55,310 nucleotides of DNA, taken from assembly GCA_964353745.1 (NCBI GenBank), contig CAYGWD010000003.1, positions 1 to 55,310 of the forward strand, written 5' to 3'. This document shows positions 6,835 to 25,791 of this stretch, piece after piece (the stretch's first letter is position 1; each line of letters opens with the position of its first letter). The notes beneath the pieces are model-generated. The model had not been told where the DNA came from and made no database searches. It worked only from the letters and a program-made list of their open reading frames with translations. The position numbers were made by a program, and so were the translations under genes. Origin of the DNA: an uncultured archaeon (GTDB lineage: Archaea > Aenigmatarchaeota > Aenigmatarchaeia > Aenigmatarchaeales > Aenigmatarchaeaceae).

Positions 6835-7045
6835 GATAAAAATTGGCAGAACCTACCTTTAAATTTTTCTGTCTTACCCCTTAATTTCCTATAGAAACTA
6901 GATTTTTTATGAAAAAAATGTCTAAAATATCTTTTTGCATATATAAATCTTTTTAAATGAAACTTCACCTATTTTTAGTTAACCTTTAGCTTTGCTACCC
7001 AAAAGATTAGGATAACAGCTATGTTAATCAAAGGGGAAAACAATT

Positions 7046-7648
7046 ATGGACGAGGGTTTAATCAAGTGGTTAATTAACAAGAATTATGATTATTTCTATA
7101 ACTTTCCTCTTGGAGGTAAGTTTCCAGACTTGATAGCTATCAAAGAAAAAGAGTTAATAGCTTTTGAATTTAAGAAACGTGCTAATGAGATTCCAACAGC
7201 CATGGGTCAATGTTTATTTTATCTCGAGAACGCTAATAAGGTCTTTATCGTTATTCCAAAGAAAGAAAAGGAACTTTTATCAGCTTCTGCTATTGAGACT
7301 ATTAAAAATCAAGGCATAGGACTAATTGTTAACAATGGCAGCGTAGAAGTTCTGGTAAATGCTAGGAACTTTCGCAAAAACAATGTCTCGATCATAGAAG
7401 AGATTAAAAAAAAGAAAGCCGGAAAAACTGAAAAACCCCATAAAAACAATGTAAAAGAAAGTGTAATAGAAGTCTTGAAGGAACATCCAGAAGGTCTTAC
7501 AACAGTTGACATATCAAAATATATTGGGATGACGAGGCATTCCGTTACCAAGTATATCTACCAACTTCTAGGTGAAGGCACAATCTCCCAAAGAGAGGTA
7601 GGTACAGCTAAACTATGTTATTTGAAGGGTAAACATGCAAGAAAATAA
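7046..7648 (+). CDS. PD-(D/E)XK nuclease-fold domain fused to C-terminal winged HTH
   Basis: FPDLIAIK...AFEFKK...AMGQCLFY nuclease-type motif; C-terminal HPEGLTTVDISKYIGMTRHSVTKYIYQLLGEG..REVGTAKLCYL wHTH. Confidence 0.72.
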   Translation: MDEGLIKWLINKNYDYFYNFPLGGKFPDLIAIKEKELIAFEFKKRANEIPTAMGQCLFYLENANKVFIVIPKKEKELLSASAIETIKNQGIGLIVNNGSVEVLVNARNFRKNNVSIIEEIKKKKAGKTEKPHKNNVKESVIEVLKEHPEGLTTVDISKYIGMTRHSVTKYIYQLLGEGTISQREVGTAKLCYLKGKHARK

Positions 7649-7838
7649 TTTTAGAGAAAGGATAATAGAGAACTTGAAGTATCATCCAGAAGGCCTGACT
7701 ATACTCAACATAGCAGGAATCACAAGAATAAACAGAGCAACAGTATCTAAATACATCTTCGGCTTGGTTTCTGAAGGCCTGGTTACTCAGAGAAGGGTAG
7801 GTACTGCAAAATTGTGTTATCTAAAGGTGGGTAAATGA
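7635..7838 (+). CDS. Stand-alone winged-HTH protein, paralogue of the upstream gene's C-terminal domain
   Basis: HPEGLTILNIAGITRINRATVSKYIFGLVSEGLVTQRRVGTAKLCYLK; overlaps both neighbouring genes. Confidence 0.8.
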   Translation: MQENNFRERIIENLKYHPEGLTILNIAGITRINRATVSKYIFGLVSEGLVTQRRVGTAKLCYLKVGK

Positions 7839-8527
7839 AATCATTAGCTAAATCATTGGTAGGAAAAATCTCAACAACAACAGTCTTCCTAATAATAATT
7901 GTTGTTTCATTACTAATTTTGAAAGAGGCCGAGATTGTTAAGGCGCAGAACGAGTCTAATATTACAGGTTATGAGATAGCAGACCTTACTCTGGAAAACA
8001 ATACATCTTCTTCAAGTCCTAATACAACAGACCTTCTTAATAATATCTCGAATGAAACTCAAATTACTAATGAAACTTTCATTGAAAACGTTACGAATAA
8101 TGAGACATCCGAAATTGTGAATGTTAGCGACGAAACCTTTGAAAACATTACTGTTAACGAGACCGAAATTTTAAATGAAACTCTAATTTCAAATGAGACA
8201 TCTAATGAGACTTCTCAAGAAATTAATGAAACTCATTCAACTGAACATAATTTTTACACAAGTCTGGACTATCCTAGAAAAATAACAAGAGGAGAAATTA
8301 TAACAGCCAAGGCTACTGTGACTAACAATGATTCTTCGGAAGCTAAGAATGTTGCTCTTGACTGGGAAATACCGCAAGGATTCGGAATAGTTTCTGGCAA
8401 TGAAAGGGAATTCTGCGGTGACTTGAAACCTAGCGATGTTTGCAATAGTGAGATTATGCTAAAAACAGATGTTTTGACACCTGTTGGGTTGAGCGAAATC
8501 AAAGTTGTGGTGAGTTATGAAGAGTAG
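7835..8527 (+). CDS. Secreted/membrane-anchored glycoprotein with Asn-Glu-Thr-rich stalk and C-terminal Ig-like (CARDB/S-layer-type) domain
   Basis: N-terminal hydrophobic segment; repeated NET sequons; YPRKITRGEIITAKATVTNN..AKNVALDWEIPQGF..GDLKP Ig-like pattern. Confidence 0.75.
   Translation: MKSLAKSLVGKISTTTVFLIIIVVSLLILKEAEIVKAQNESNITGYEIADLTLENNTSSSSPNTTDLLNNISNETQITNETFIENVTNNETSEIVNVSDETFENITVNETEILNETLISNETSNETSQEINETHSTEHNFYTSLDYPRKITRGEIITAKATVTNNDSSEAKNVALDWEIPQGFGIVSGNEREFCGDLKPSDVCNSEIMLKTDVLTPVGLSEIKVVVSYEE
8050..8235 (+). repeat. Low-complexity NET (Asn-Glu-Thr) coding repeats
   Basis: aatgaaact/aatgagac recurring; NETQITNETF..NNETS..NETEILNETLISNETSNETS..NETH. Confidence 0.75.
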
Positions 8528-11500
8528 TGCTAAATCAGGACAGAGCCAGTTATTGATTCCTGTAATCATAATTCTAAGTTCTATATTAGCTCTGGCAGCG
8601 AACACAACCATAAACGCTTTGAATTCAACTTCGAATGGTTCAACCATAACAGGAAATATGATAGGCATACCGCAGACAATAGAGCAAAGCTTTCCAATAG
8701 AAGTATGGGCTAACACTTCTATAAGACTAGAAATAGAAGAAAGTCTGGTCAGAGCTACTTTGTTATTAGACAATGGGACTTTGCTTGAAAACCAGCAAAT
8801 AGACCTTTACGTTAATAACACGGTGTGGGGTTCTGGTTTAACTAATACTGAAGGATTTGTTAATTTTCCTGTTAGTGAAAAAGGTGTTGTAAAGGCTAGG
8901 TTTAACGGTGGTGATTTTCTTAATCCTTCTGAGAATCAGATTGATGCCAAAAAATTTGAATCAAGGAAAGTAAATGTTTTATTCGAAGAATTAAAACAGG
9001 GCAGGGCTATAATAGGTGAGCCTGTCAAATGGACAAAGAAGATAAGAATTAAAAATGAGTTGAATCAAAAGACATTTTTTGATGCTTCAGATTTCGTTCC
9101 TAAAGATGCTTTTAACGCCTCATTATCTGGTGGAATCTTAAACGATACTTTTTCGGAAAAAACCAAAGCCTTGGAAGTAGATGAAACTAAGGAATATATT
9201 ATAGAATATTTTACAGAAGCTCCGAAAACCTTTGAAGAAATAATAAACAAGTACAAGAAACTAGTAACCGTGAGTTCGGATATTAATTATAGCGACATAA
9301 CAACTTATACAGACATTGAAGAAGCAAAACAGGAATCAATAAGACTTTACTGGTTTGTTGATAGTAAAAAAATTGATGTTACTCATGATCCATCAATAAA
9401 CCTTACTTTCATTGACACGAACAATGATGATCTGATTGATAGGCTTAAGTGGATAACGCCTCATACTTCTAATCAAACATTTGAAGTAACTATTACAGTG
9501 TTAAATGTTCATACTGTTGTTAAAAACTATGAGAATTGGACAGTTGCTTTTGATACAACAGGCCAGGCAGATTTGATAATTAATTCTACTAATGCCAAAT
9601 GGACTGAATTCTTAACAGATGATGCTTTAACACAAGATGAGATGAAGTTCTTGGAGATAAGCTGCGGCAACAATTCCTTGAAAAGCTCTTTGGAATTAGT
9701 GGATGAGAATGATAATTATTATAATTATTCAGAGCTTGAGGGAGATTCGATAAAAATCAAAAAACTCTTGATAAGAAATTATAGTTGCGATGAAACAGGT
9801 TATTTAATAAATAATATGTTTATTGCAGGTTATGCGACATTACAATTTACATTCGGTGATCTAACAGCTCTTGCTTATGATGACCCTGGTAATTTAGTAT
9901 GTACTGCTGTTAGTGGAGCTTGTCCAACATCATCAACTGATTGTAATGGAGCTGGTGCTACATGCAATTATCCTACATGTGTCTGCAATGTCACAACAAA
10001 TCAAACAATTGATGCTAATGCAAAATATAATTTTAAATCATTGATAATTCCTTCTACAATTGTTGTTAAAGTAAGTATAAATGCAAGCGGTGGAAGTGGT
10101 GGTTCTGGAGGTGTTGCACCTGGCGGTGGGCAAGGAAATGGTACAAACGGAACTGCTGGCTATTGGGGTTATGGAGGAATAAGTGGATATGGTGGAAACG
10201 GTGGAAGCTCTAATTCTACTCATGGAATAAGAGGATATAACAATATAAGTTCTGGTAGTGGTGGAGGAGGTGGTGGTGGTAAAGCAGGTGATTATATAGG
10301 CTTCAATGGTGGTGCTGGCGGGAATGGGGGAAATGGTGGCGGTTATGTTATTTTCAATGCAACCAATTTCATAAATATTTCTGGAACTTTAAATGCAAAT
10401 GCTACAAATGGAGTTGCGGGTTCAGTTGGGCTTAATTGTGATTCCGCAAATCATTTATGCGGTTCTGGTGGAGGAGGTGGTGGTGGAGGCGGTGGAGGTG
10501 GAATTTCTTTAATTGCTTATACTGTAAATATCACTGGAATTTTGAATGTAAGTGGTGGCAATGGAGTGAATGGAGGGGATGGAGGTGAATGCATAGCAAC
10601 TTGGTCAGGTACTGACGGATCTGGAGGAAATGGCGGGAATGGAGGAAATGGCGGATTTATTAACATCTCTGCTTCTTACATTTATAACACATCTACAATT
10701 GATATTAATGGAGGAAGTGGTGGAGGCGGTGGAACCGGCGGCAGTTATTGCACTGGCACGGATGGAACAAATGGCAGTAGTGGTTCTTCTGGATCATCTG
10801 GAGTTATTGCACTTTTAGCAGTAACACCATTACAACCTGCAAACGCAAGCACTATTTACACAACAACTGTAGACTTGAATCTTACAGTTAATTCTTCTAA
10901 GGCTATTAGCATTCCTACTAGAGTTTATGTAGATGGTGTTTCAAAATGTTATAATAATTCTCTTCCAAACGGAACTTTATGGAATTGCACTGTTAGTGGA
11001 TTGTCTTACGAAACTCACACTTGGTTTGTCGCAGCTTACACTACTTATATAGCCTATAATTCTACTCCTTTTCAATTTACCGTGGCAGACAATGTACCGC
11101 CTACCTACTCTAACAGTGCAACAAATACAACTAATGCAGGTAGCCCCTGTGGTTTTAATTTAACATGGAATGATAATGTTGGTTTAAATTCAGGAGGTAA
11201 ATATATTTTCTCATCAAACAATTCTGGCTATTGGAAAAATTACACTGCACCTTTGCAAACACCAAATATATTTTACAATTTTGGCTATAATTCCACATAT
11301 TCAACAACAAATAGCAATCCTGATAGTGCAACTAATTCCATAACAGATTATTATTATAATAGAGCAAATGTTTCAGATAATAATAGATTTGATTTTACTG
11401 CATCATTAAAAGCAAGTGCACCAGCAGGAAGTGAAAATTTTACTCACTACAAGTTTATCTTTAATCTTTCTGATTATATTATTGAAAATATTTCAAGAAT

Positions 11501-14500
11501 ATGTTATAATGTTGAAGGATATTATATTCTAAATGGTGCTGCAGATGGATATGCATATATTCAAATTAAAAATATGACTACTGGCTCTTGGACAGGTTCG
11601 ACTAATTTAGGTACAAGTGAATCTATTACATCTAAATGTTATTCTTCTAATGATTTTACAAAAACAGGCCTTATAAACACAACAGACAATTCAACGTATC
11701 TATCAATATCATCAGAAATATATTGTATTGGTCCTGGTGCTTGTACTGTTATTCCTCCATATACTATAGTTTATGTAGATTATGTAGAAATAAACATAAC
11801 AACAAATCAAACTAATTTTACTTCAACGCCTCAAACTATAAGTTATGGTTTAGTTTTAAATCCAACAATCGGAACAAAAGTAGGTTGGTGCTATTATGCA
11901 TCTGACAATTCTAGCAATTGGAATGGAACGAACTGTCAGAATGATAATACGTATTTCTATGTGACTACAAGTGATGCTACACCGCCAACCTATACGAACA
12001 ACGCATCCTCTACTATATCCACTTATACACCTACCGGCTATTCTAACTTCTCGATAACATGGAACGATAACTCTGGCTCATTGGCAGGTGCTTATTTGGA
12101 GAACAACTTCTCGGTTACGCTTACGAACACTAGTATGACTGGCAGCCTTACATCATTACCCCAGACGTTTTATTACAATACAACACCACTGACAGCAGGA
12201 ACATATCGATACAGGTTCGTAGCTAACGACTCCTCTGGCAATACCAATGTCACTCCTGTATTAACATTCACAATAGCTCAAGCAACAACAACAGCTACGT
12301 TATATCTGAATAACAGCCAAACTGGACAGACGTCAACGTACCCCAACTCAACCATCAATGCCACTGCTACATCAAGTGTTGCTGGTCTGTATGTCCGGAT
12401 ATGGAGGAACGGAACGCTGATTGACAATGTTACGAGCACGTCGTGGAATGTTTCTCAGTGGGGAGCCTATAATAATAACTTCACTGCTCAGGTCTTAGGC
12501 AACGAGAACTATTCGAACAGTGCGTTGGTTACGTTGTGGTGGAACGTGAGCAAGGGTCCTACAAGCGTATCATTGTATTTGAATGGAACTCAAAATAACA
12601 ATAGTTACGTCCAAAATAATATTGCTAACTTCACTGCTGTTGTTAACGTTAGTGGCAAGACTGTTTACTTGGATTCCAATTACACTGGTTGGTTATTGCA
12701 ATCTGGTACAACATCAATAGTTAATTATACCAGCCTGAGCACAGCAGGTAATTTTTGGAACCTGACAGGCTACTTTAGTGGCGATGAGAACTACTCTGCT
12801 TCATCAAAAACGTATTGGTTTAATGTAAATGAGACGACGCCACCTACCTATTTTCTAAATTCAACTAATTCAACAGGTGCAGGAACTCTAATTGAATTTA
12901 GATTAAATTGGTCAGATAATACTGCATTAAGCAAAGCAATAACAAGTTTATGGAATGGAACTAGCTGGGTAAATGCATCGGATTGGTGTTCTTTGTCTAC
13001 AAATCCCAGTTGGTGCAACCAAACTTTAGTTGTAAACTCCACGCCTCAACAATTATGGTGGAAGCAGTATGCTAATGATACTTTTGGTAATTGGAATACG
13101 TCTGAAAATTTTAGTCTTTTAACAACACCGCCAACTTTAGCAATAACAATTCAAAGTCCTTTAAATCAAACTTACAATAAAAAATGGGTCTGGTCAAATG
13201 TTACTTTAAGTCAAGTAGGCTCATGGTGCGGAGTTAGCTTAAACTCAACTGCTAACCAGACTTTGTCTAACAGTTCCACAACAAATTGGTATTTGAATTT
13301 GACTGCTCCATCAGAAGGACCTAACAATGTAAAATTCTACTGTAATGATACTTCTGGAAATATGTCTTCCAGCAATACTGTCTACTTCACAGTTGACACG
13401 ACACCGCCAACTTATTCAAACAACGTAACAAACGATACGACAGCAGGAAAGCCTGTCCAGTTCAACCTGACGATGAATGACACTTTGGCACTACATCCTA
13501 ACGGACAATATATATTCGGTTTGGACAATTGCACAGGCTCTTTTGTCAATGATTCTGCTGTTAACTTCACTTCTACACCACAAACCATATCAGTGGTTAA
13601 AACGATCAACTCCACTGTCGGCTGCACGATAAGATGGTATTTCAACTTCTCAGATAATGTTAGCAACTGGAATAATAGTTTAGTTTCGAATCCATTTACC
13701 TTTACAACAATATCTGACTATCCTCAGTATTCCTTGAATTCGACAAATGGAACAGCAGCGGGAACACCCATCTCCCATAACTTGTACTGGACTGACAACT
13801 ATGGTCTGTCAGGATATATCTTCTCATTCATTAACGGAACAAATGGAACAACAACATACAATTTTAGTGATACAGCAAACAACAAAGCTTATAATAACTC
13901 TGTTACGACAGAACCGCCTACAAGTTTGACACCGGCAGGCGAGGAGGAGTTCTCATCAGGAGCATATACAAACATATCAACATCAGACAATAGCTATTTT
14001 GAGACGAGCAACACAACTTCTTATTCTTACCATAAATTCAACATAACGATAAATGAATCCATTAACTCTTTAACGCAGATAAACGTAAGCTGGGAAGGCC
14101 ATACGACTTCTACTGGAACAGCTAATCTTTACGTTTATAATTTCACAGCAGGAAGCTGGGGCTCTCCCCTCGCTTCTAATACGGGAGCAACTGATTTCTG
14201 GTTGAACAAGTCCTTCACTTCTGGATTCAGCGATTTAATCACTTCTGGTAGAATAAGTGTCCTAGTTCAAGACCCTTCAACAATTTGGACACAAGGCAAT
14301 ATCTCCAATTGCACACAGGGAGTTGGTTATTCTTGTAATGTCACCCAATCTTCTACTGTTAGTAGTGCTACAAACTTTACATTCGATAATTTAGTTGTTC
14401 AACCAGGAGTAACTATCACTATTCAGAACAGGACATGGTTCAACATCACGACCTTGAACACTTCTGGTTCAATTGGATGGATTAATATTTCTGGGACTAT

Positions 14501-16538: not shown

Positions 16539-16545
16539 ACTATAT

Positions 16546-17142
16546 ATGGAAGAAATACTTATAAATAAAAGTGAAAAAATTATGAAAGACGAGGAAAAAA
16601 TTGCTAAAAAAAGTTCTAAAAAATTGATAATAGTGATTGCAGTTATTATAGTGATAGCGGCAATAGCATTTGGATTCTACAGTGGTATCTTTTCTCTGCC
16701 AACAGGCCTAGTAGTAGGAGGAACAAGCGCAGCAGGAAATCAAAAGAGCACTAATGAAAATCCAGCATCTCAACCGTCATCTGTTCAACAACCTATTTTT
16801 ACTACAACTGGAACAGAGGTTATGACAAAAGATGTGACAGAAAATCTTCCATATTATGAATCTTTAGATTTGGAATCTGGAAGATATTCCCTACAAGTTG
16901 CAACAGATAAACCAGTTTGGATAAGACTTTATGACCAATTACATTTTGATGAATGGAAAAATGACGGAAATCATGGAAAAGTAGTGATTGGAACAAATTT
17001 AGATGAGAAAAGCAAAACGGATAATTTTAACAAGAATTTTGATATAAGCCCGGGCAACGGCGGAAAACACTACTTATTGATTTTTGGAAATAATGAAAAA
17101 ATCTCAATAAAATTTATAATAAAACAAATTTTTAAAACTTAA
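16546..17142 (+). CDS. Single-pass membrane protein with extracellular beta-sandwich domain
   Basis: Basic N-terminus, TM LIIVIAVIIVIAAIAFGF, S/Q/P linker, beta-rich C-terminal domain. Confidence 0.75.
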   Translation: MEEILINKSEKIMKDEEKIAKKSSKKLIIVIAVIIVIAAIAFGFYSGIFSLPTGLVVGGTSAAGNQKSTNENPASQPSSVQQPIFTTTGTEVMTKDVTENLPYYESLDLESGRYSLQVATDKPVWIRLYDQLHFDEWKNDGNHGKVVIGTNLDEKSKTDNFNKNFDISPGNGGKHYLLIFGNNEKISIKFIIKQIFKT

Positions 17143-17160
17143 AAATAGGAGGAATTCAAA

Positions 17161-17742
17161 ATGAGAAAAACAAAGATACTAACATTTATAACCATTATAC
17201 TGATAGGAATAACACTATCGTGCATACCAGCGCTAGCAGCAAGTCTAGAATATACGAGAACAACTTTATACTTCATTGTTGAATCAGCTAATGAGGTGTC
17301 TGTCTTTCTAGTCAATGAAGGTACTGGAACTATATCATCAGGAAGTGGACAGGACTCAACTAACACTCTAAACTTTACATGCCCTGCTACAGATTGTGCA
17401 TGGAAGAATGTAAGCATATCAACTGGTGCAACGCAAACTGATACTACGCCAGGTATTACCATAAGGGATACAGGAACCTCACCTGTTGGAATAAACATTT
17501 CAGTGAACACTTCTCTTCCTACAGGTACAATACCCGCTAGCTGTTTAGATTTAAGATATTCAAACAACACATACGACAGTACGCCGGCAGATGCACCAGC
17601 AGCAGATTTAATCACAACAAATGTGACTCTAGGCAATCTAACGGCAACAGCACAATTTAGCGTCTGGCTATATGGTAACTTTACTGGTTGCCAAGTTCAA
17701 ACAACCCCATTGGCGTTTTATGTTTGGGCGTACTTTTGGTAA
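17161..17742 (+). CDS. Secreted beta-rich protein homologous to the C-terminal domain of the giant protein; putative filament subunit
   Basis: Strong RBS AGGAGG; signal peptide ending ALA-AS; shared SSGSG, Q..I..TG...NI..N.SL and W...NFTG motifs with giant C-terminus. Confidence 0.78.
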   Translation: MRKTKILTFITIILIGITLSCIPALAASLEYTRTTLYFIVESANEVSVFLVNEGTGTISSGSGQDSTNTLNFTCPATDCAWKNVSISTGATQTDTTPGITIRDTGTSPVGINISVNTSLPTGTIPASCLDLRYSNNTYDSTPADAPAADLITTNVTLGNLTATAQFSVWLYGNFTGCQVQTTPLAFYVWAYFW

Positions 17743-17761
17743 TAGATAATAGGTGAAATAA

Positions 17762-17911
17762 ATGAAAAAAATGGTTAGCATAGTTTTTACTATAGATGAT
17801 AATCTAGACGAGATGGAAATCATAAAAAACGTTAAGAAGTTTCTTAAAGAAGAGTTTCTAATAGACGATTTAGGACATCATGTGAAACCGATATTAAATC
17901 GACAATATTAA
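17762..17911 (+). CDS. Small hypothetical protein (49 aa)
   Basis: RBS AGGTGA upstream; MKKMVSIVFTIDDNLDEMEIIKNVKKFLKEEFLIDDLGHHVKPILNRQY; fills the gap between co-oriented genes; below ORF-track cutoff. Confidence 0.5.
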   Translation: MKKMVSIVFTIDDNLDEMEIIKNVKKFLKEEFLIDDLGHHVKPILNRQY

Positions 17912-17920
17912 AAAATAGAG

Positions 17921-18847
17921 GTGAAAAAATTGAAAAAAAATAATAAAAAAAGAATTGCCTTATACGCGATAGTTGCGGTGGTTATAATAGCAGCTTTGTA
18001 TTTCATAAACAACCCGATAACAGGCAACGTCATAGCAACAAACACAACGAAAGAATATGATTTTTCAAGGTCGGGAAATCCAGATTATTACAGTTTGTTA
18101 CCATCGATGCCATCTGACTTTAAAGTAATTAAATTAATGTGGCAACAGGGAATAATCAGAGATGATCCAAACAGAATCAACGATTCTTATTGGAAGCAAC
18201 CAGAATGGTGGCCACTTTATTATGAAAACTTTTTATCAACATTAAAATATGTAGTTGAGTCTAACAGAATGCCTGTATGGAGTTTGGGTGTATTTAATTC
18301 TCAGATATACAGAGCTATAAATCAAGAATGGCTTAAAAATGCAAGCAATATTCCAGAGACGTCTGGTCACGGAGAATTAGAAATAAGAGAAAACAGTTTA
18401 ATAGTAAAACATAGATTCTGGTTAAGGGCAGCTCCAGGTGCTGCTAAAATTTATGGAGTTAGAATTTCAGCCGATTATCCTCCAGAAGCTAATTTAATAG
18501 GAATCGTAGCACTTAACATACCGAATGAAACAGTTAAGCAGGACCCTGAAATAACAAAAAAATACATAAAGGTAACGGCAGTGGAAAGGGACTCGGGTCA
18601 AACAGAGTTTAATTTTGGAACATACTGGCCCAAATTGAGTCCTGATTATCTAAAAGAAATTGAGTTAACAGCTGAGATAGATAAAAACACGCCTAAAGGT
18701 ATGTATATAGTTGGTGTAAATGTAGGAGCCCCTTCAAGGGAATATCAAGAACAACAGAGTCTAAAATATCTTTTAGCATATACAGATCCAAACATAGGAA
18801 TGTATAGAGGACCAACTAAATTTGCGTTGTTTATAGAAGTAATTTAG
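17921..18847 (+). CDS. Single-pass membrane protein, extracellular domain ending in an Ig-like segment (start possibly TTG 17930)
   Basis: Lys-rich N-terminus, TM, NPITGNVI motif; C-terminal IELTAEIDKNTPKGMYIVGVNV. Confidence 0.75.
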   Translation: MKKLKKNNKKRIALYAIVAVVIIAALYFINNPITGNVIATNTTKEYDFSRSGNPDYYSLLPSMPSDFKVIKLMWQQGIIRDDPNRINDSYWKQPEWWPLYYENFLSTLKYVVESNRMPVWSLGVFNSQIYRAINQEWLKNASNIPETSGHGELEIRENSLIVKHRFWLRAAPGAAKIYGVRISADYPPEANLIGIVALNIPNETVKQDPEITKKYIKVTAVERDSGQTEFNFGTYWPKLSPDYLKEIELTAEIDKNTPKGMYIVGVNVGAPSREYQEQQSLKYLLAYTDPNIGMYRGPTKFALFIEVI

Positions 18848-18849
18848 AT

Positions 18850-18878
18850 GTTTATTTTTTTTTCTGTTTATTTTTTTT
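18850..18878 (+). terminator. Oligo-T archaeal terminator-like tract
   Basis: tttatttttttttctgtttatttttttt directly after the stop at 18847. Confidence 0.5.
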
Positions 18879-18962
18879 AATATCATTAAAACTATAAATT
18901 ATAATTAGTATTAAGTATCAATAGTTATTCATAGAATATATTGAAATTAAATCAAAATTTAG

Positions 18963-21146
18963 TTGATTAAAATGAAACTAATCTGCTTATGTTTTTTAAT
19001 TTTATTTATTTTATCAATAGATACAGTTTATGCACAGGATATAGAATGGGTTATGGGTAAAACTTTTTTTATAGTTGATATTAAACCTTGTAATTTTTTC
19101 TCTACGCCAACAGACTGTCAGTCAGTAGTCGGTTGTTGCTGGTGCACTTCTGGCAGCGCTTTTGGTTGTCAAGTCTGCCCTTGCCCAACAGTGCAACCGC
19201 CAACATCGCCGGGAGGTCCGGGAGGAGCCTTCATACCTCCTGAAGAAAAGAAGAACCAAACAAACATCACAGTCACTCCTCTTTCCTTAACAACCAACAC
19301 CATTGAAGTAAGACTATATCCTGGGGAATACGAGATAGTCTCCCTAGGGATAACGAACAACCAACCAGAAAATAGAACCATCAAACTAGGTGTGGAAGGG
19401 GACATATGGCCTTACGTATTGTTCGAGAAGGACACTTTCTCAATAAATCCTGGAGATTCGTACAATGCTAACATAAAATTCTATACTCTGCCAACAACAA
19501 TGCCAGGTATCTATAATGGCAACATCGTAGTCATGTCCGGCAACATCACCAAGAAAGTAGCGGTCATCATGAGGGTCGAGTACAAGCCTGAAAAGTTGTT
19601 GGACATAAAGGTTGACACAATAACAAAGGATGTCTATCCCGGCGACCGCATGAAATACCTTGTCACGTTGTATAATCTAGGCCTGACTAAAAGAGTGGAC
19701 GTGTTCATCAACTATACTGTCAGGTCTGTTGAGAATGATACCATAATATCAAAAACTGGCGAGACGGTAGCGTTAGAAACTTCCCTGTCTTTTGACAGGA
19801 ACATAATAATACCAAACGATACGCCAACAGGTATTTACGTCATAGAGGCTATTGCAGCTTACGAAGATAAGAGAGCTACTTCAATAGCATCCTTTAATGT
19901 TGTAAAGCCCTTCTGGCTAATACCTTTCTTATGGTCCTTGCTAACCAACTGGATAACTTACGTTGTATTATTCATATTGATACCTGCTCTGTATCTTATC
20001 AAGAAACTATACGAAAAACTAAGAATGAAAAGAGTTTACAAGGCGAGATACGTGAGGCCTGTTGACCTTAACAAGCTGCCTAAGAAAGGCCTGCTCGTAG
20101 GCAAAATAGCTGAAACCAATGTTGACGCTTATATTGATCCTGACGATCTGACGACCCACCTGATAGTGGCAGGCGGAACAGGTTCTGGAAAATCAGTGTC
20201 AGCCATGATAATTGCAGAAGAACTTTTGAAGAAAGGAGTGCCTGTTGTTGTCTTTGACCCAACAGCGCAATGGACAGGATTCATAAGACCTTGTACGGAT
20301 AACAAGATGTTGAATCTATATCGTAAGTTCAGAATAAAGAAAGAGGAGGCAAGGGCATTCAAAGGAACAATAATTCAGATAACAGATCCTTTCATGAAGG
20401 TTGAGATAGAGAAATTCATAAAGAAGGGCGAGATAACCGTACTCGCATTGAACAAGCTGACACCAAACCAGTTGGATTACTTTGTAAGAAAGACCATCGA
20501 TTATATGTTCACCATATCGTGGCCAGAATCAAGAGAATTGAAATTGTTGATGGTATACGACGAAGTGCACAGGCTGTTGCCAAAGTATGCCGCGAGAAAG
20601 GTTTCTGCATTGGAAGGCGGAGGCTACATTGCCTTAGAAAGGGGAGTGAGGGAATTCAGAAAGTGGGGAATAGGTTTGGTAATGATATCTCAGGTATTGT
20701 TAGACTTCAAAGGGGCGATAAGAGCTGTCATAGCAACAGAAGCTCAGTTGAGAACGAAATACGAGGGAGACATAAACAGGATAAAAACAAAATATGGTTG
20801 GCAGTACTCAGCAGCCATTCCGAAACTGGAAGTGGGAACCGGTCTGGTGCAAAACCCAGGATACAACAACGGTAAGCCATGGTTCATATCATTTAGGCCT
20901 TTGCTGCACGATACATTCAGGATAACAGACCAAGAACTGGAGTCTTATGATAAATTCAAGAAAGACATAGAAGATTTAAGAAAGGAAACAGAAAAATTAA
21001 AGAGCAAGCAAATAGATACTTATGATATGGAACTGGAGCTCAACTTAGCAGAAGAGAAAACTAAGACAGGACAATTAAGAATGGCTGAAACCTACATAGA
21101 ATCTGTAAAAACAAGAATAGAAACCATTGAAAAGAGGAGAAAGTAA
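18963..21146 (+). CDS. Membrane-spanning HerA/VirB4-like (DUF87-type) ATPase with signal peptide, Cys-rich module and extracellular Ig-like domains
   Basis: Signal peptide, CNFF..C..CCWC..C..CPC, PG linker, two Ig-like domains, TM WITYVVLFILIPALYLI, Walker A AGGTGSGKS, VVVFDPT, Walker B VYDEVH, REFRKWGIGLVMISQ, C-terminal helical region. Confidence 0.88.
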   Translation: MIKMKLICLCFLILFILSIDTVYAQDIEWVMGKTFFIVDIKPCNFFSTPTDCQSVVGCCWCTSGSAFGCQVCPCPTVQPPTSPGGPGGAFIPPEEKKNQTNITVTPLSLTTNTIEVRLYPGEYEIVSLGITNNQPENRTIKLGVEGDIWPYVLFEKDTFSINPGDSYNANIKFYTLPTTMPGIYNGNIVVMSGNITKKVAVIMRVEYKPEKLLDIKVDTITKDVYPGDRMKYLVTLYNLGLTKRVDVFINYTVRSVENDTIISKTGETVALETSLSFDRNIIIPNDTPTGIYVIEAIAAYEDKRATSIASFNVVKPFWLIPFLWSLLTNWITYVVLFILIPALYLIKKLYEKLRMKRVYKARYVRPVDLNKLPKKGLLVGKIAETNVDAYIDPDDLTTHLIVAGGTGSGKSVSAMIIAEELLKKGVPVVVFDPTAQWTGFIRPCTDNKMLNLYRKFRIKKEEARAFKGTIIQITDPFMKVEIEKFIKKGEITVLALNKLTPNQLDYFVRKTIDYMFTISWPESRELKLLMVYDEVHRLLPKYAARKVSALEGGGYIALERGVREFRKWGIGLVMISQVLLDFKGAIRAVIATEAQLRTKYEGDINRIKTKYGWQYSAAIPKLEVGTGLVQNPGYNNGKPWFISFRPLLHDTFRITDQELESYDKFKKDIEDLRKETEKLKSKQIDTYDMELELNLAEEKTKTGQLRMAETYIESVKTRIETIEKRRK

Positions 21147-22729
21147 TGGCTGAAAAGACTGTTGGAGAAATCTTAGAAGAGCAGGGAGTTATTAGCCCTG
21201 TAAAAGAGGGAAAAAAAGGGGAGCAGAAAGAGGATATTGAAGAAAAGAAAATTAGTTTTCTTGGGGAAATAAGAATTAAGCAACTGGTCATGGACCTTGA
21301 AAAGATCAAGGCCGAAGTAGAAGGACTAAGGGAAGTAAAGTTTAGTTCTGATGAAAGGATAAAAGAGCTGTCAGAAAGCATAGGAGAAATTAGGTCAATG
21401 CTGTTTCAAAAGGACAGCCTCGTAAAAGAACTGGAAGCAAAAACCAAACTTCTTGGAGACAGCATCAACGATATTGAGCCTAAAAAAATTTCCAAGGATT
21501 TTCAGAAACAGGAAGAGCGCGTTGCGCAGTACGAGGCAAAGACTGAAAAAATAGAAAGCATGTACAGGGACGTATTGAAAAAGCAGGAAGAGTCTCAAAA
21601 AATACTCGAGGGCATCAAGAGCGTCGAGAACCTAAAGACAAGAATAGGGGAAATGGAAAACCTCGTCTCAAAGTCTATAGAGAATAAGGCGGAGGTAGAC
21701 AGGCTCGAAGCAAAGACTGAAAAGTTCTATATGGAAATAGGAGATAAATTAAGAGAGTTTTCTAAGTTAAAAACTGACACGGAGAAGATAGATGACCTGA
21801 CCAAGGAAATGATCAAATCAATCGACGAAATCAATATCAAGATGACGGGTTTTGCGAAAAAAGAGGATGTCGAAGGTTTTAAAAATATTATTAATGATTT
21901 GGTGGTATCAAACAAAGAAAAGATAGAGGAAAAATTGAAAGGAATAGAAGAATCCTTAAACGTTCCTACAGAAGGTCTGACCTCGAAGATAAGCGAGCTG
22001 CAGAAGAAGAGAGAAAGCGTGCTGAACCTGATAAACAGCCTTGAGGAACAGTACAGGAGAGGCGCTTTGAAAAGGGAGACATTCGAAGAGGTGAGAAACA
22101 AGAACGAGGACCTGCTCAAGAAGATTGATGACGACATTAAGAAATTGGAGAGCCAAAAAGGCCTATCACTGAAATCCTTGCCTAGCATAATAAATGAACT
22201 CGGTGATAATCAGAGAATGTTAGACAGCAAGGTAACAGAAATGGAAGAGCAGGCAGAACCGTTCAAGAATCTGGAAAGCAGGACTTATGTCATGGAAAGT
22301 TCGGTCGATGAAATAAAGGAGGACTTGAGAAAAGTCGGTCCTGAAAAAATGGCTAGGATGGCCAACGCGATAGAAATCCAGACGGAAATTGTCAACGATA
22401 TCCTCACCAAACTGAAGGAGGTCAACAGAAGATTGATGGACGCAAAGGTGAATCTGAACGATTATGAGAACAGAACCAGATTCTTTGAAATTCTTAACAT
22501 CCTGGTGAGATTGAGAGCTGTAAATGAAATTTCTGATTATCTGAACGAGCTTGAAAATCTTATTTTAAAGATGAAGCTGGACAAGCTGTGGAATAGGGAA
22601 AAACAGGACCTGACAGAGAATCTTTTGATGGAGCTGTCAGAGAACTGGCACGAATCAGGGAGAGACGACGTTTCTAAAGTGTTCACTGATTTTCTAGAAA
22701 AGGTAAGAGCACCAAAGACAGCCAAGTAG
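21146..22729 (+). CDS. Long cytoplasmic coiled-coil protein (527 aa) with internal SHOCT-like motif
   Basis: E/K-rich heptads throughout; LEEQYRRGALKRETFEEVR; start overlaps ATPase stop (TAATG). Confidence 0.8.
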   Translation: MAEKTVGEILEEQGVISPVKEGKKGEQKEDIEEKKISFLGEIRIKQLVMDLEKIKAEVEGLREVKFSSDERIKELSESIGEIRSMLFQKDSLVKELEAKTKLLGDSINDIEPKKISKDFQKQEERVAQYEAKTEKIESMYRDVLKKQEESQKILEGIKSVENLKTRIGEMENLVSKSIENKAEVDRLEAKTEKFYMEIGDKLREFSKLKTDTEKIDDLTKEMIKSIDEINIKMTGFAKKEDVEGFKNIINDLVVSNKEKIEEKLKGIEESLNVPTEGLTSKISELQKKRESVLNLINSLEEQYRRGALKRETFEEVRNKNEDLLKKIDDDIKKLESQKGLSLKSLPSIINELGDNQRMLDSKVTEMEEQAEPFKNLESRTYVMESSVDEIKEDLRKVGPEKMARMANAIEIQTEIVNDILTKLKEVNRRLMDAKVNLNDYENRTRFFEILNILVRLRAVNEISDYLNELENLILKMKLDKLWNREKQDLTENLLMELSENWHESGRDDVSKVFTDFLEKVRAPKTAK

Positions 22730-22737
22730 GTGATTGG

Positions 22738-23739
22738 TTGAATTTCTCTTTGGTTAAAAAAATTTTAATAATATTTTTTCTATTGATTTTTTTCACTAAA
22801 GCCTATGCATCGGCAAGCGTGACAATCTATTGCCCTGAAGAGATTCTAATTGAAAAAGGCTGGACGAACTTCATCAGTTTTTCTGTAAACAACAACGGAG
22901 ATGTTGCTTTGAAAAACGTCAGCGCATCCATAAATGGCACCTTTTCCAAATGGTTTGAATTCCAGAACAATAAGATAGATGCACTTGAGGTGAATAAAGA
23001 AACAGACTTGGTAGCCAAGGTTTCAATTCCTGCAGAGATAGCTATTGGAAACTATAACTTCTCCTTTAGCGTGAAATCGAGCGACATAAGCAGTAAAAAG
23101 GATTTCACTGTCAGGATATTCGAATCAAGAGACGACCTGCTGTTGCATCAGATACAGAATCTAAAAAATAATTTGAGCGAACTGGAAAAAGAAGCTGATA
23201 GAATAGAGTCTACGGGAAAGAACCTGACATCTATTAGAAGCTTATTTTATCAGATAAATTCCGAACTAAACTCGGCAAAAGATCAAGTCAACAACAAACA
23301 ATACACGCAGGTAACGGAAACTATAAGGGATGTTGGAAAGCTTTTTATAGAGGCTAGTTTTGACATATCAAATCCTCCTGGACCAACAGAAACAAAGGGT
23401 AATCAAAACTTCGATATATCAAGCAAGGACATATTCTTCATATCCTTGGGAATAGGCATCGTCGTTCTTCTGATAGCGCTAATCTATTTACTCAGGAAAA
23501 TCAAAATAGAAAACAAGGTAAGACTGCCTAACCTAAGGTTAAAGGAGCTTATTGTTGAGAACAAAAGGCTCAAAGAAGTGGAAAAGGAAATTGAGAAAAC
23601 CAAAGAGGCGCAAAGCATAATCGAGGAAGAGAGCAAAGAAAACATGATATCAAAAGAGAGCTATGATGAACTAAAAGTGAAGTACCAGGAAAAACTGTTG
23701 GAGTTGGAAGGCGAGAGAAGGAAGGTAAGAGGATATTGA
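22738..23739 (+). CDS. Membrane protein: signal peptide, Ig-like (CARDB/NPCBM-associated type) domain, helical bundle, TM, cytoplasmic coiled coil with SHOCT-like end
   Basis: SVNNNGDVALKNVSASI..IPAEIAIGNYNFSFSV; TM IFFISLGIGIVVLLIALIYLL; IEEESKENMISKESYDELKVKY. Confidence 0.78.
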   Translation: MNFSLVKKILIIFFLLIFFTKAYASASVTIYCPEEILIEKGWTNFISFSVNNNGDVALKNVSASINGTFSKWFEFQNNKIDALEVNKETDLVAKVSIPAEIAIGNYNFSFSVKSSDISSKKDFTVRIFESRDDLLLHQIQNLKNNLSELEKEADRIESTGKNLTSIRSLFYQINSELNSAKDQVNNKQYTQVTETIRDVGKLFIEASFDISNPPGPTETKGNQNFDISSKDIFFISLGIGIVVLLIALIYLLRKIKIENKVRLPNLRLKELIVENKRLKEVEKEIEKTKEAQSIIEEESKENMISKESYDELKVKYQEKLLELEGERRKVRGY

Positions 23740-24494
23740 TGACCAGAACCATAGGAATCATATCTGGCAAGGGCGGTGTTGGTAAAACCACTATAGCTGC
23801 TAACCTTGGCGCTGCCCTAGCTCACAGGTTTAAGAAAGATGTAACCGTAGTCGATTGCAACCTGACAGCACCTCACCTCAGCCTTTTGCTCGGCATGCAT
23901 TATCATCCTATAACATTGAATCACGTCCTAAGGAATGAGAAACACATCAGCGAGGCTGTCTATGAACATCCTAGCAGTATGAAAGTGATACCTGCCTCAT
24001 TGCAGTTAAAGGATTTGATAAAGGCTGATATAACAAAATTAGGAAAGAACCTGAAAAAATTCAAGGGAAAGACTGACATAATTTTCCTGGATTCTTCTCC
24101 TGGATTAGGCAGGGAAGCTTCCGCGGCAATCGATGCAAGCGAAGAGATACTGTTTGTCACAAAACCTGACATACTATCCGTCTCCGACGTCATCCGGGGC
24201 AAGGAATTGATTGACAAAATAAAGAAAGAGCAAATAGGAGTTGTCATGAACATGGTGACTGGAGGCAGCCATGAACTAACTAAAAAGGAGATTGAAAAGA
24301 TGACAAACCTGCCAGTGGTAGCTGTCATACCTCATGATAAAAATGTTCCCAAAAGCTTGGAATTTAGAACGCCTGTTGTGTTGCACAAACCGAACTCAGC
24401 AGCAAGCAAGGAGTTGAGGAAACTGGCTGGATTTATTATAGATGAGAAAGAACTGAGACTCTGGGACAAGCTGATTAGATTCCTTAAAACCTGA
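23736..24494 (+). CDS. minD: MinD/ParA-family ATPase (archaeal MinD-like)
   Basis: Deviant Walker A SGKGGVGKTT, VVDCNL, LDSSPGLG, VVMNMV; amphipathic C-terminus LWDKLIRFLK. Confidence 0.9.
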   Translation: MMTRTIGIISGKGGVGKTTIAANLGAALAHRFKKDVTVVDCNLTAPHLSLLLGMHYHPITLNHVLRNEKHISEAVYEHPSSMKVIPASLQLKDLIKADITKLGKNLKKFKGKTDIIFLDSSPGLGREASAAIDASEEILFVTKPDILSVSDVIRGKELIDKIKKEQIGVVMNMVTGGSHELTKKEIEKMTNLPVVAVIPHDKNVPKSLEFRTPVVLHKPNSAASKELRKLAGFIIDEKELRLWDKLIRFLKT

Positions 24495-24499
24495 TTAAA

Positions 24500-24871
24500 A
24501 TGAACATCAAACAATTCCTGAAGCCAGACTGGAGAAAGATTGTAGTATTTGTTGTTTTAATTATATTATTTTTTCTTACAGAAGAATTAGTTATGGATTC
24601 AGTCTATTATTATTTAATAAACAAATGTATGGGTGGTCCATGTGGAGAAAATGGTGGATGCTATTATAATGTATGCACTTTTGGAAAAATAAAAATTTAC
24701 TACTTTTATAATGATTTTGATATTAGATTATTACCATTAGTAATATTTTTTGACCCGCTTCAACTGTTTAATCTTTCTCTGGATTATCTAATTTATCCTT
24801 TTACTATATTTTATTTATATCTCTTTTCTTGTTTCATAATCTGGATATACGACAAGTTTAGAAAAAAGTAA
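24500..24871 (+). CDS. Small membrane protein with Cys-containing loop
   Basis: MNIKQFLKPDWRKIVVFVVL; hydrophobic segments flanking CMGGPCGENGGC..C; very AT-rich. Confidence 0.7.
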   Translation: MNIKQFLKPDWRKIVVFVVLIILFFLTEELVMDSVYYYLINKCMGGPCGENGGCYYNVCTFGKIKIYYFYNDFDIRLLPLVIFFDPLQLFNLSLDYLIYPFTIFYLYLFSCFIIWIYDKFRKK

Positions 24872-24907: not shown

Positions 24908-25204
24908 ATGGTTATTGAGCTAACGCTAACGACCGTCTTGATATTCGTAGGCTTCGTGGTGTCAGTCTTTATTATCTACAAAATTTTAAAACTATTGTTC
25001 AGAGCCTCCTTAGTTGTGGTAGCCTCATTCGCCTTTCCCTGGGTTGCAAGATACTTTGGTTTGGCAATAACAACGAACCTAGAGACGGGTTTATTCTTTG
25101 CCATAAGCGGTTTCACACTGTTCTGTGTGTATGAGTTCTTCCACTTTATAGTCCAGTTCTTTAAAATGATAACATGGCCTTTTAGAAGAAAGAGTGGTAA
25201 ATGA
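24908..25204 (+). CDS. Small multi-pass membrane protein
   Basis: About three hydrophobic segments; ATGA overlap with next gene. Confidence 0.75.
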   Translation: MVIELTLTTVLIFVGFVVSVFIIYKILKLLFRASLVVVASFAFPWVARYFGLAITTNLETGLFFAISGFTLFCVYEFFHFIVQFFKMITWPFRRKSGK

Positions 25205-25791
25205 TGATTGAAATAAGAAGGAAACTGGTGCACGCTTCCGGCGTTTTCTTGATTTTCATAATCATATGGCTGGGAAAATGGAACGCCGCCCTGATAATTC
25301 TCTCAATGGCTGTGACATTTCTTTTGCTGGGAGAATATAGGAAGAATAGAGAAAAGTATAAGATAATAAAATCAAAAGAGCTGGACGAGATCGAGGAAAC
25401 CATGGAAAAAATGTTCAAAGAGCATGAGAGGCCTAACACCCTGCCGTTTAAGGGTGCAACAGAATTTTTCATAGGATGCTTTCTAGCCACAGTGATATTT
25501 GAGCCTATAACAGCAATAGCAGCCATCGCCGTCCTATCGTTAGCAGACGCTTTATCAACACTGATAGGAAGCTATTATGGAAAACACAAACTTCCGGTAA
25601 ACAAGAAGAAGACTTTTGAAGGGAGCACAACCTTTTTCCTAACATCTATCTTTGTCTTGTGGTTTTTTGTCAATCCCTTGAAAGCCATTATAGTGGCGAT
25701 TCTAGCAACATTCGCAGAAATGATACCCAAAATAGATGACAATCTTACAGTTCCACTAACAGTTGGAATTGTCATGACATTGATTAGTTAG
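25201..25791 (+). CDS. SEC59/DGK1/VTE5-family CTP-dependent polyprenol/diacylglycerol kinase
   Basis: EIRRKLVH, LSLADALSTLIG, KKTFEGS, IDDNLTVP. Confidence 0.85.
   Translation: MMIEIRRKLVHASGVFLIFIIIWLGKWNAALIILSMAVTFLLLGEYRKNREKYKIIKSKELDEIEETMEKMFKEHERPNTLPFKGATEFFIGCFLATVIFEPITAIAAIAVLSLADALSTLIGSYYGKHKLPVNKKKTFEGSTTFFLTSIFVLWFFVNPLKAIIVAILATFAEMIPKIDDNLTVPLTVGIVMTLIS

Follow-up and report, generated by a model that had tools for sequence, protein, structure and literature searches.

A compact, split locus that probably belongs to the SPEARE-type surface ATPase modules of DPANN archaea

The window analysed in this work is a stretch of 55,310 nucleotides from an uncultured archaeon (assembly GCA_964353745.1, contig CAYGWD010000003.1), and the element in question is a cluster of twelve genes, g01 to g12, within which g09 encodes a predicted membrane-bound ATPase. 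The window is contig C3 of the genome designated G000 (994 kb in 61 contigs, estimated completeness 89.7%), and the source organism is a DPANN archaeon of the Aenigmatarchaeota type with a genome of approximately 1 Mb; its closest protein relatives carry the labels Aenigmarchaeota or Aenigmatarchaeota in their source records. Among the genomes used for comparison, G001, G002, and G004 belong to the same genus as G000, and G009 belongs to another genus. The ATPase, a coiled-coil protein (g10), a protein composed of an immunoglobulin-like (Ig-like) domain, a membrane helix, and a coiled coil (g11), and a MinD protein (g12) form a conserved module, and the novelty of the work lies chiefly in this conserved set of partners. 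The locus itself is probably a minimal and split version, not seen before, of a kind of protein that is already known, the SPEARE type.

All twelve open reading frames (ORFs) were found on the plus strand at exactly the predicted coordinates (Table 1), in agreement with the original prediction of twelve co-oriented genes, and its gene and domain calls held when compared with Pfam, NCBIfam, and helix prediction. The intergenic spacings from g01 to g12 are −14, −4, −11, 7, 18, 19, 9, 115, −1, 8, and −4 nt, and five gene pairs overlap. The 115-nt spacer between g08 and g09 is the sole gap of more than 36 nt in the cluster and contains the only runs of at least eight T residues within positions 7001–27600. 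The three orthologous spacers inspected are likewise T-rich and then TATA-like. With oligo-T runs followed by a TATA-like stretch, and with this layout kept in the orthologues, the spacer probably holds a terminator and a promoter dividing two transcription units; a second unit beginning at approximately 18.9 kb, as first proposed from the oligo-T tract, is therefore plausible. The locus has an unremarkable GC content. It is chromosomal and not mobile, because members of the genus share one gene order all the way from the Hef helicase to ribosomal protein L10e, of which G009 also has the part from g05 to L10e.

The likely start of g09 is the ATG at 18972, at which the orthologues begin with MKK. 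Behind a signal peptide and a Cys/Pro-rich linker, the protein carries a pair of Ig-like domains, a single membrane helix, a P-loop ATPase domain of the HerA clade, and a C-terminal helical hairpin. Hydropathy analysis placed hydrophobic helices at residues 1–19 and 322–340, from which a single-pass topology is predicted, with the Ig-like domains outside and the ATPase domain inside the cell. In the structure model of residues 1–345, two β-sandwich domains were obtained at 105–313 (predicted local distance difference test score, pLDDT, 77–92 by block), followed by a helix at 319–344, and the Cys/Pro-rich residues 17–103 were left unmodelled; Foldseek matched this ectodomain to tandem domains of the Ig/FnIII-like kind. 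The model of residues 345–727 had a pLDDT of 86 and a predicted template modelling score (pTM) of 0.85. Its best Foldseek matches were HerA hexamers (4d2i_A, E 2e-11, TM 0.52), followed by anti-phage HerA complexes, the packaging ATPase B204 of STIV2, and the coupling protein TcpA. HerA 4d2i was also placed first (E 6e-13) in a sequence-profile search of the PDB with g09, and the Pfam family DUF87/HerA was matched with 49.8 bits (cut-off 23.2). Walker A, Walker B, and the arginines of REFRKWG are invariant in 15 of 15 aligned ATPase sequences, and the catalytic motifs are intact as judged from the alignment. By sequence and by predicted fold, the ATPase domain is nearest to HerA and not to VirB4 or a restriction enzyme. 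The domain assignment is thereby corrected towards HerA from the restriction-enzyme or VirB4/TraG-like readings given in the accessible text of earlier papers.

The genomic neighbourhood was analysed for the best 80 of the 472 confirmed ATPase relatives among species-representative genomes. The g10 gene was counted over loci with at least 1.5 kb of downstream sequence (n=75), and g11 and MinD were counted over loci with at least 9 kb (n=48). A g10 homologue was located directly downstream of the ATPase, on the same strand, at 73 of the 75 loci, with a spacing mostly between −31 and about 100 nt. At the 48 loci with the longer flank, g10 was found in 47, g11 in 35, MinD within 10 kb in 21, and all three in 21. 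The g11 homologues range from 325 to 2,103 aa, many of them being close to 1,950 aa long, and the match spans nearly the whole of g11. At further loci from Nanohalarchaeota, g10 was found downstream in 6 of 6. Five MinD-like matches are present in the 994 kb of G000, and the chance of finding one within 10 kb was estimated at about 5%, compared with the 44% observed. Of the co-occurrence anticipated in the original prediction, the part concerning the ATPase, the two coiled-coil-bearing proteins, and MinD was borne out; the other part was not, as g03 to g08 constitute no conserved partner module (with the queries used, g06 and g08 gave strong matches in only 5 of 41 related genomes, from two genera). 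In the open literature on DPANN archaea and Aenigmatarchaeota (subscription journals and supplements lay outside the search), no description of the g10, g11, and MinD partners was found.

Table 1. Features of the cluster and its immediate downstream flank (positions are those of the window).
Feature	Position	Strand	Description
g01	7046..7648	+	200 aa; weak PD-(D/E)xK-like nuclease fold (N-terminal), winged helix-turn-helix (C-terminal); likely regulator
g02	7635..7838	+	67 aa; winged helix-turn-helix
g03	7835..8527	+	230 aa; membrane-anchored, sequon-rich surface protein with C-terminal beta domain
g04	8517..16538	+	2673 aa; giant secreted glycoprotein, adhesin-like, without C-terminal anchor
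g05	16546..17142	+	198 aa; single-pass membrane protein with ectodomain
g06	17161..17742	+	193 aa; small secreted protein with sequons and Cys
g07	17762..17911	+	49 aa; acidic cytoplasmic protein
g08	17921..18847	+	308 aa; single-pass membrane protein, ectodomain of about 270 aa
g08–g09 spacer	18848..18962	+	two oligo-T runs (18855, 18871), then A/T-rich, TATA-like stretch
g09	18963..21146	+	727 aa (probably 724 aa); short form of SPEARE-type ATPase
g10	21146..22729	+	527 aa; coiled-coil protein of an unnamed family, cytoplasmic
g11	22738..23739	+	333 aa; signal peptide, Ig-like domain, membrane helix, cytoplasmic coiled-coil tail of about 80 aa
g12	23736..24494	+	252 aa; archaeal MinD-type ATPase, deviant Walker A, amphipathic C-terminus
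g14 + g15	24908..25791	+	98 aa and 196 aa; small membrane proteins, syntenic in relatives

The partner proteins were characterised individually. For g10, NCBIfam returned only the coiled-coil regions of SMC/Rad50 models (15–32 bits versus cut-offs of 567–1087), and no ATPase head was found. An alignment of 18 sequences contained a conserved core with ten invariant residues (E52, E77, G80, E81, R83, S84, P112, E134, K135, and E192); the relatives are all unnamed or labelled by coiled-coil likeness. Matches to g10 are specific, with at most one per related locus and one other, partial match in the 994-kb genome. The latter is a protein of 222 aa (contig C14, 1106–1774; locus L118), 33% identical to residues 412–513 of g10 and situated outside any locus of the SPEARE or ATPase type. 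In g11, an Ig-like domain of the NPCBM_assoc type (26.8 bits versus 24.4) and a membrane helix at residues 234–252 were identified, and the protein is a short form of a second surface protein that commonly reaches about 1,950 aa in relatives. The g12 protein passes the archaeal MinD model TIGR01969 (224.8 bits versus 201.75) and carries the deviant Walker A with the signature lysine (SGKGGVGKT). The genes g14 and g15 follow MinD in G001, G002, G004, G009, and on contig C20 of G018 (G018:C20); no family was found for either, and their membership in the module is unproven.

Several smaller genes were observed around the module. In the window, a 123-aa Cys-rich membrane ORF, g13 (24500–24871), lies between MinD and g14 and is missing from the syntenic loci (the g14 gene of G001 comes 37 nt after MinD); it is either an insertion specific to G000 or no gene at all. 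Elsewhere, a membrane protein of about 150 aa that resembles zincin/M50B was found near the module at 15 loci (e.g., L046:10192-10650), a protein of about 220 aa without a Pfam family was found between g11 and MinD at 9 loci (e.g., L048:18871-19542), and a coiled-coil protein of about 98 aa was found near the module at 8 loci (e.g., L063:13025-13327).

Relatives of the ATPase domain are numerous. In a word-indexed protein collection, 669 relatives of near-equal length and 446 longer ones were obtained at E ≤1e-5, and an exhaustive search gave 420 cluster representatives that match the domain at E ≤1e-30. The named relatives are mostly from Aenigmatarchaeota, and also from Micrarchaeota, Woesearchaeota, Nanoarchaeota, Nanohaloarchaeota, and Altarchaeum. 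Within the phylum of the window, the ATPase was found in 75 of 151 genomes (43 of 89 of high quality) and in 46 of 96 genera, with open frames of up to 14,526 aa. In Nanohalarchaeota (the phylum of locus L065), the domain was found in 28 of 42 genomes at 46–59% identity, with open frames of up to 12,145 aa; a nanohaloarchaeal protein of 2130 aa (P0218) is 50% identical to the g09 ATPase. Up to three copies occur per genome. Among the 41 related genomes, 23 gave matches to the full g09 query, and 13 gave matches at the level of the ATPase (E <1e-90). Predicted open frames of 13,200–14,500 aa that end in the ATPase domain were observed in G164, G210, G137, G201, G167, G108, and G103; these are longer than the protein of 9,409 aa that is called the largest of any cultivated archaeon in the available part of a 2023 paper. 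Close relatives of the ATPase also occur in records labelled Heimdallarchaeota, Methanosarcinales, Methanobacteriota, Thorarchaeota, or Thermococcus (L040, L108, L115, P0004, P0082, and P0125).

Two forms of the ATPase gene were distinguished. The short form (724–731 aa) is present in G001, G002, G004, and G009, in which the gene order g05–g12, g14, g15, DUF1512, and L10e is kept; in G004 the upstream order is also that of the window (g03, two winged helix-turn-helix genes, a 109-aa gene, an M50 peptidase, a HerA-like gene, and the Hef helicase). In the giant form, which was found in G007, G014, G018, G022, and G027, the ATPase constitutes the last approximately 620 aa of a giant open frame. 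A second, giant-type ATPase locus is present in G001, G002, G004, G009, and G018, and the giant frames of these related genomes, second loci included, measure from 1,800 to more than 10,000 aa. The G018:C20 locus is syntenic (MinD, g14, g15, DUF1512, and L10e downstream), yet its ATPase frame extends over at least 4,349 aa. At 69 loci the ATPase frame runs past the analysed stretch, and 40 of these 69 frames still measure at least 3,000 aa. The association of an adhesin with the ATPase that was originally proposed is supported by the relatives, most of which fuse a large adhesin-like ectodomain to the ATPase in one open frame of 3,000 to more than 14,000 aa.

Each of the four short-form orthologues examined (G001, G002, G004, and G009) has the genes g05–g08 on its upstream side, whereas none of the giant-form loci does; among the best 80 loci these genes occur in just three, all of which are short forms. 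The window holds a rare short form, in which a separate giant glycoprotein and a four-gene cassette, g05–g08, found in only two genera, accompany a short ATPase. A maximum-likelihood tree built from 24 ATPase domains places the short forms within a clade of seven (support 100/99) that also contains the giant forms of G007 and G018:C20. The short form of G009 groups with the giant form of G018:C20 (97/96) and not with the short forms of the window's genus. Short forms are therefore not monophyletic, and at least two changes between the short and the giant form, in one direction or the other, are required. When g03–g08 were compared by phmmer with eleven giant homologues, the sole match was the g04 orthologue of G004, which points to an exchange of ectodomains and not to a mere cut. 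That a single giant gene just split up into g04–g09 is not supported by the phmmer comparison, despite the similar summed lengths.

The tail of a second, giant-type paralogous locus was observed in G000 itself (contig C9, 1–17502; locus L119). A g11 paralogue of 1,986 aa, 67% identical to that of G001, begins there 520 nt from the contig end, together with several secreted Ig/CARDB-like proteins and two MinD paralogues. This locus is collinear with the G001:C1 locus, the ATPase frame of which measures 10,206 aa, and its own giant ATPase gene seems to lie beyond the contig end, lost at the assembly break.

Upstream of the ATPase, the Pfam matches of g01 are all below cut-off (HTH_IclR, E 5.6e-4; Hjc, E 0.011; AHJR, 0.067), and a motif resembling PD..ExK was read by eye from its sequence. 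As the G004 orthologue consists of a winged helix-turn-helix of 73 aa alone (74% identical), the N-terminal domain of g01 is specific to G000. The g02 protein matches the IclR helix-turn-helix with 24 bits (Pfam cut-off 22) and has orthologues in G001 and G004 with 75–81% identity. In g03, a membrane helix at residues 17–35 and 17 N-x-S/T sequons were found; its C-terminal domain gave marginal matches (A2M, 21.5 bits versus 21; NPCBM_assoc, E 4.9e-4), and its G004 orthologue is 49% identical. The giant protein g04 contains a hydrophobic N-terminal helix (residues 12–30), 178 sequons, Gly-rich blocks at approximately 504–766 and 1999–2232, and six TPP(T/Q)(Y/W) modules; no family was found for it by Pfam, NCBIfam, PDB sequence search, or tandem-repeat search. 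Giant genes homologous to g04 lie upstream of g05 in G001, G004, and G009 (the G002 contig stops at g05), and the last approximately 100 aa of g04 are 74% identical to the G009 protein.

Within the cassette, g05 has a membrane helix at residues 19–37, gave only matches below cut-off in Pfam, NCBIfam, and PHROGs, and has orthologues only in G001, G002, G004, and G009 (47–48% identical). The g06 protein has a hydrophobic, signal-like N-terminus (residues 6–24), eight sequons, and five Cys residues, and g08 has a membrane helix at residues 12–30; no family was found for either among Pfam, NCBIfam, and PHROGs. Each of the two was matched in 6 of the 41 related genomes, strongly in G000, G001, G002, G004, and G009. 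The most conserved gene of the cassette is g07, with 84–90% identity in G001, G002, G004, and G009 versus 36–62% for its neighbours, and it encodes a real, strongly constrained small cytoplasmic protein. Protein-atlas scores of g08 and g10 did not exceed 0.84 and pointed to unnamed archaeal clusters or Ig-like families; they are leads only.

In the accessible text of Hamm 2019 (PMC6642349), SPEARE proteins of Nanohaloarchaeota are described with lengths of up to 8,553 aa, together with versions of 655 and 717 aa, as mostly extracytoplasmic proteins with one membrane helix near the C-terminus; their intracellular part is the most conserved one and was read as restriction-enzyme-like. The same text reports similar sequences in Woesearchaeota, Aenigmarchaeota, Micrarchaeota, and Altiarchaeales and the detection of the protein by proteomics. 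In the available part of La Cono/Reva 2023 (PMC10266531), the intracellular part was reinterpreted as a VirB4/TraG-like ATPase with a coiled coil behind it, a type-IV-like mode of secretion into the host was proposed, and a second VirB4-like ATPase downstream was described. The accessible part of a 2023 Nanohaloarchaeum preprint (10.1101/2023.02.24.529834) presents SPEARE only as a possible adhesin or protease, and the family is not treated in the accessible parts of the 2014 'dark matter' paper (PMC4158269) and of a 2024 cryo-electron tomography preprint on Micrarchaeota (10.1101/2024.05.20.594898). The original suggestion of an undescribed system is accordingly not supported: the ATPase is the conserved cytoplasmic domain of SPEARE-type proteins, the Aenigmarchaeota likeness of which is already noted in the text of Hamm 2019 that was available.

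Because its architecture is the same as published and its ATPase domain is found in giant frames of Nanohalarchaeota, g09 is classified from its sequence as a short member of the SPEARE family. Shared features, as far as the accessible descriptions go, are the signal peptide, adhesion-type domains outside the cytoplasm, a single membrane helix, a conserved P-loop ATPase on the cytoplasmic side, and a coiled coil at the C-terminal tip. By contrast, g09 has only 727 aa and just two Ig-like domains, the giant glycoprotein (g04) is a separate gene, and no laminin-G, protease, or toxin-like region was found by Pfam in g09 or g04. The coiled-coil partner, the g11-type protein, and MinD go unmentioned in the available text of the SPEARE papers.

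With HerA of the HerA–NurA system (PDB 4d2i), g09 shares the RecA-like ATPase core, which gave the best profile and fold match, and probably also the hexameric state. Different from HerA, g09 has no HAS-barrel N-domain and carries a membrane helix and a basic juxtamembrane stretch instead, and it scores only 19–29 bits on the NCBIfam HerA equivalogs (cut-offs 800–970). As the original prediction had indicated, no partner from type IV pili, the archaellum, the NurA/Mre11/Rad50 set, or Ced was found among the Pfam and NCBIfam matches of the cluster, and the channel partners of type IV secretion systems and Ced (VirB3/6/8, CedA/A1/A2) were also absent from these matches. With the T4SS-DNA_transf model, g09 scored 21.2 bits versus 20.1, and only over a P-loop stretch of 60 aa; TrwB_AAD_bind gave 13.4 bits versus 20.5, the TraC and TraD models gave 19–20 bits versus 366–567, and CagE_TrbE_VirB gave no match. 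The closest functional analogy for g09 is provided by membrane-tethered FtsK–HerA translocases. Streptomyces TraB, the TcpA/VirD4 coupling proteins, EssC (type VII secretion system), and CedB/CedD are pumping ATPases that are anchored in the membrane through a few helices at the N-terminus and move DNA or protein between cells. To our knowledge, none of these has a fused large adhesin or coiled-coil, Ig–membrane helix–coiled-coil, and MinD partners.

The locus is probably a version of the DPANN surface ATPase module of the SPEARE type that is both compact and split, and we infer the following mechanism for it. The ATPase would form a hexameric ring beneath the membrane, in the manner of HerA/FtsK-type ATPases, and would be held by six helices. 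The Ig-like stalks of g09, together with g05, g08, and g11, would bear the adhesive glycoproteins (g03, g04, and g06) or serve as docking sites for them; in the giant forms, the fused ectodomain would take the place of these glycoproteins. On the cytoplasmic side, g10 may bundle with the coiled-coil ends of g09 and g11, and MinD would place the assembly on the membrane. Where the cell touches its host, hydrolysis of ATP would then drive a polymer, either nucleic acid or protein, through the membrane or bring about a remodelling of the complex. The upstream unit would be regulated by g01 and g02, with g09–g12 as the second transcription unit. Haloferax MinD4 positions archaella and chemosensory arrays, and such a protein would offer a precedent for the placement of a surface machine rather than a division site by g12, the link of which to the module is by gene neighbourhood only (21 of 48 loci).

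Several observations weigh against this interpretation. No similarity to the giant ectodomains was detectable for g04–g08, apart from one weak BLAST match of g04 in the giant protein of G018:C20, and the view of g04–g08 as a substitute for the fused ectodomain draws on position and co-occurrence in two genera only. A scaffolding role like that of the anti-phage HerA complexes would be equally compatible with the predicted fold. As just about half of the genomes of the phylum carry the ATPase, it is dispensable, and its role need not be host contact. MinD was found in under half of the loci with enough flank. Finally, the ATPase records labelled as non-DPANN may be mis-binned DPANN contigs or real transfers.

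An unlikely reading, though one of some weight, is that two unrelated units merely adjoin: a surface-glycoprotein operon, g01–g08, that decorates the envelope, and an unlinked SPEARE-type ATPase module, g09–g12. The spacer between g08 and g09, with its oligo-T runs and TATA-like stretch, is what such an arrangement would display, and the restriction of g05–g08 to two genera and the absence of phmmer similarity between g04–g08 and the giant ectodomains point in the same direction. However, the cassette stands directly upstream of the short ATPase in 4 of 4 orthologous loci examined, which represent two non-sister lineages of the ATPase tree, and elsewhere a giant ectodomain is fused covalently to the ATPase, which would make a short ATPase that lacks an adhesin the exception. 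A device for chromosome segregation or division, in which a membrane-anchored FtsK/HerA-like DNA pump acts with an SMC-like coiled coil and MinD in DNA clearing or partition, is improbable. It would fit the FtsK–HerA superfamily of the ATPase, the division-site ATPase family to which MinD belongs, and the resemblance of g10 to SMC/Rad50 coiled-coil regions (its relatives are labelled 'chromosome segregation ATPase' by the sources), but the resemblance is far below the cut-offs and g10 has no ATPase head. The absence of the module from half of the phylum's genomes, including 46 of 89 of high quality, argues against an essential division role; the occurrence of up to three copies per genome and the giant, hypervariable extracellular part also speak against such a device. 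The FtsK_SpoIIIE model (PF01580) was matched with only 18.5 bits (cut-off 24), over 36 residues around the P-loop, and the single membrane helix and C-terminal helical hairpin of g09 differ from the multi-pass anchor and gamma winged helix-turn-helix of FtsK.

A fibre machine, in which g06 would be polymerised into a pilus- or archaellum-like adhesive fibre, is hardly more convincing and is also regarded as improbable, if anything slightly more so. A small secreted protein and membrane proteins do adjoin a membrane ATPase, and MinD can position surface machines; nevertheless, no PilB/FlaI-type ATPase, PilC/FlaJ platform, or prepilin peptidase was found among the Pfam and NCBIfam matches of the twelve proteins, and the class III signal-peptide pattern, read by eye, was absent from the N-termini of g05, g06, and g08. 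The originally suggested building of a fibre was consequently not sustained, as pilin-like subunit, platform protein, and class III signal peptide are all missing. Moreover, g06 is confined to two genera, in contrast to an ATPase module that extends across several DPANN phyla, and we know of no HerA-clade ATPase that polymerises filaments. Least probable of all, and very unlikely, is a mobile element, conjugation, or anti-virus system, for which the combination of a HerA-like ATPase, a ParA/MinD ATPase, winged helix-turn-helix proteins, and a nuclease-fold protein might be taken, as in integrated archaeal plasmids or HerA-based defence. PADLOC HerA models did match g09 (best E 2e-13), PHROG matches were obtained for the winged helix-turn-helix proteins (g01/g02) and the P-loop region, and the best NCBIfam match of g09 was CedD (E 5e-11). 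These matches, however, span the shared ATPase core only and are far below the family cut-offs (CedD, 41.9 bits versus 600), and outside the shared HerA core nothing further was obtained from PADLOC or PHROGs. No Sir2, DUF4297, NurA, integrase, or relaxase was found among the family matches of the cluster; the housekeeping genes on either side keep their order throughout the genus, as they also do in G009 on the side downstream of g04, and the GC content is, as stated, unremarkable.

The compact SPEARE-type module bears on the open question of how DPANN archaea fasten onto host cells and draw material from them. The candidates that stand out most are the SPEARE proteins, and with approximately 4,000 to more than 14,000 residues and no known partners they are very hard to study. 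With a fixed set of partners, what was one odd protein becomes a machine of several proteins that can be tested, and the window offers a natural minimal version, with a 727-aa ATPase and separate adhesin and envelope genes, of a size that suits expression, ATPase and translocation assays, and cryo-electron microscopy. A more far-reaching proposal, possible yet doubtful, is that the four conserved genes encode an unnamed machine that extends across several DPANN phyla, in which a HerA-type hexamer beneath giant adhesins, bridged by the coiled-coil protein and positioned by MinD, would move nucleic acid or protein between symbiont and host, the window holding its smallest natural form. If this were true, the separate adhesin and envelope genes would make this unnamed DPANN machine tractable for structural and biochemical work.

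A soluble second HerA-like ATPase was observed approximately 1.2 kb upstream of the cluster, adjoining a Hef-type helicase (419–1936). It is encoded on the minus strand (1959–5867) in an ORF of 1302 aa with two intein insertions (Intein_splicing and LAGLIDADG matches); the G004 orthologue, a DUF87/HerA-like ATPase of 421 aa without intein, aligns to residues 1–64, 503–737, and 1173–1302. This ATPase looks like part of a DNA-repair context outside the module, and a homologue of it was found near only 1 of the 80 related loci.

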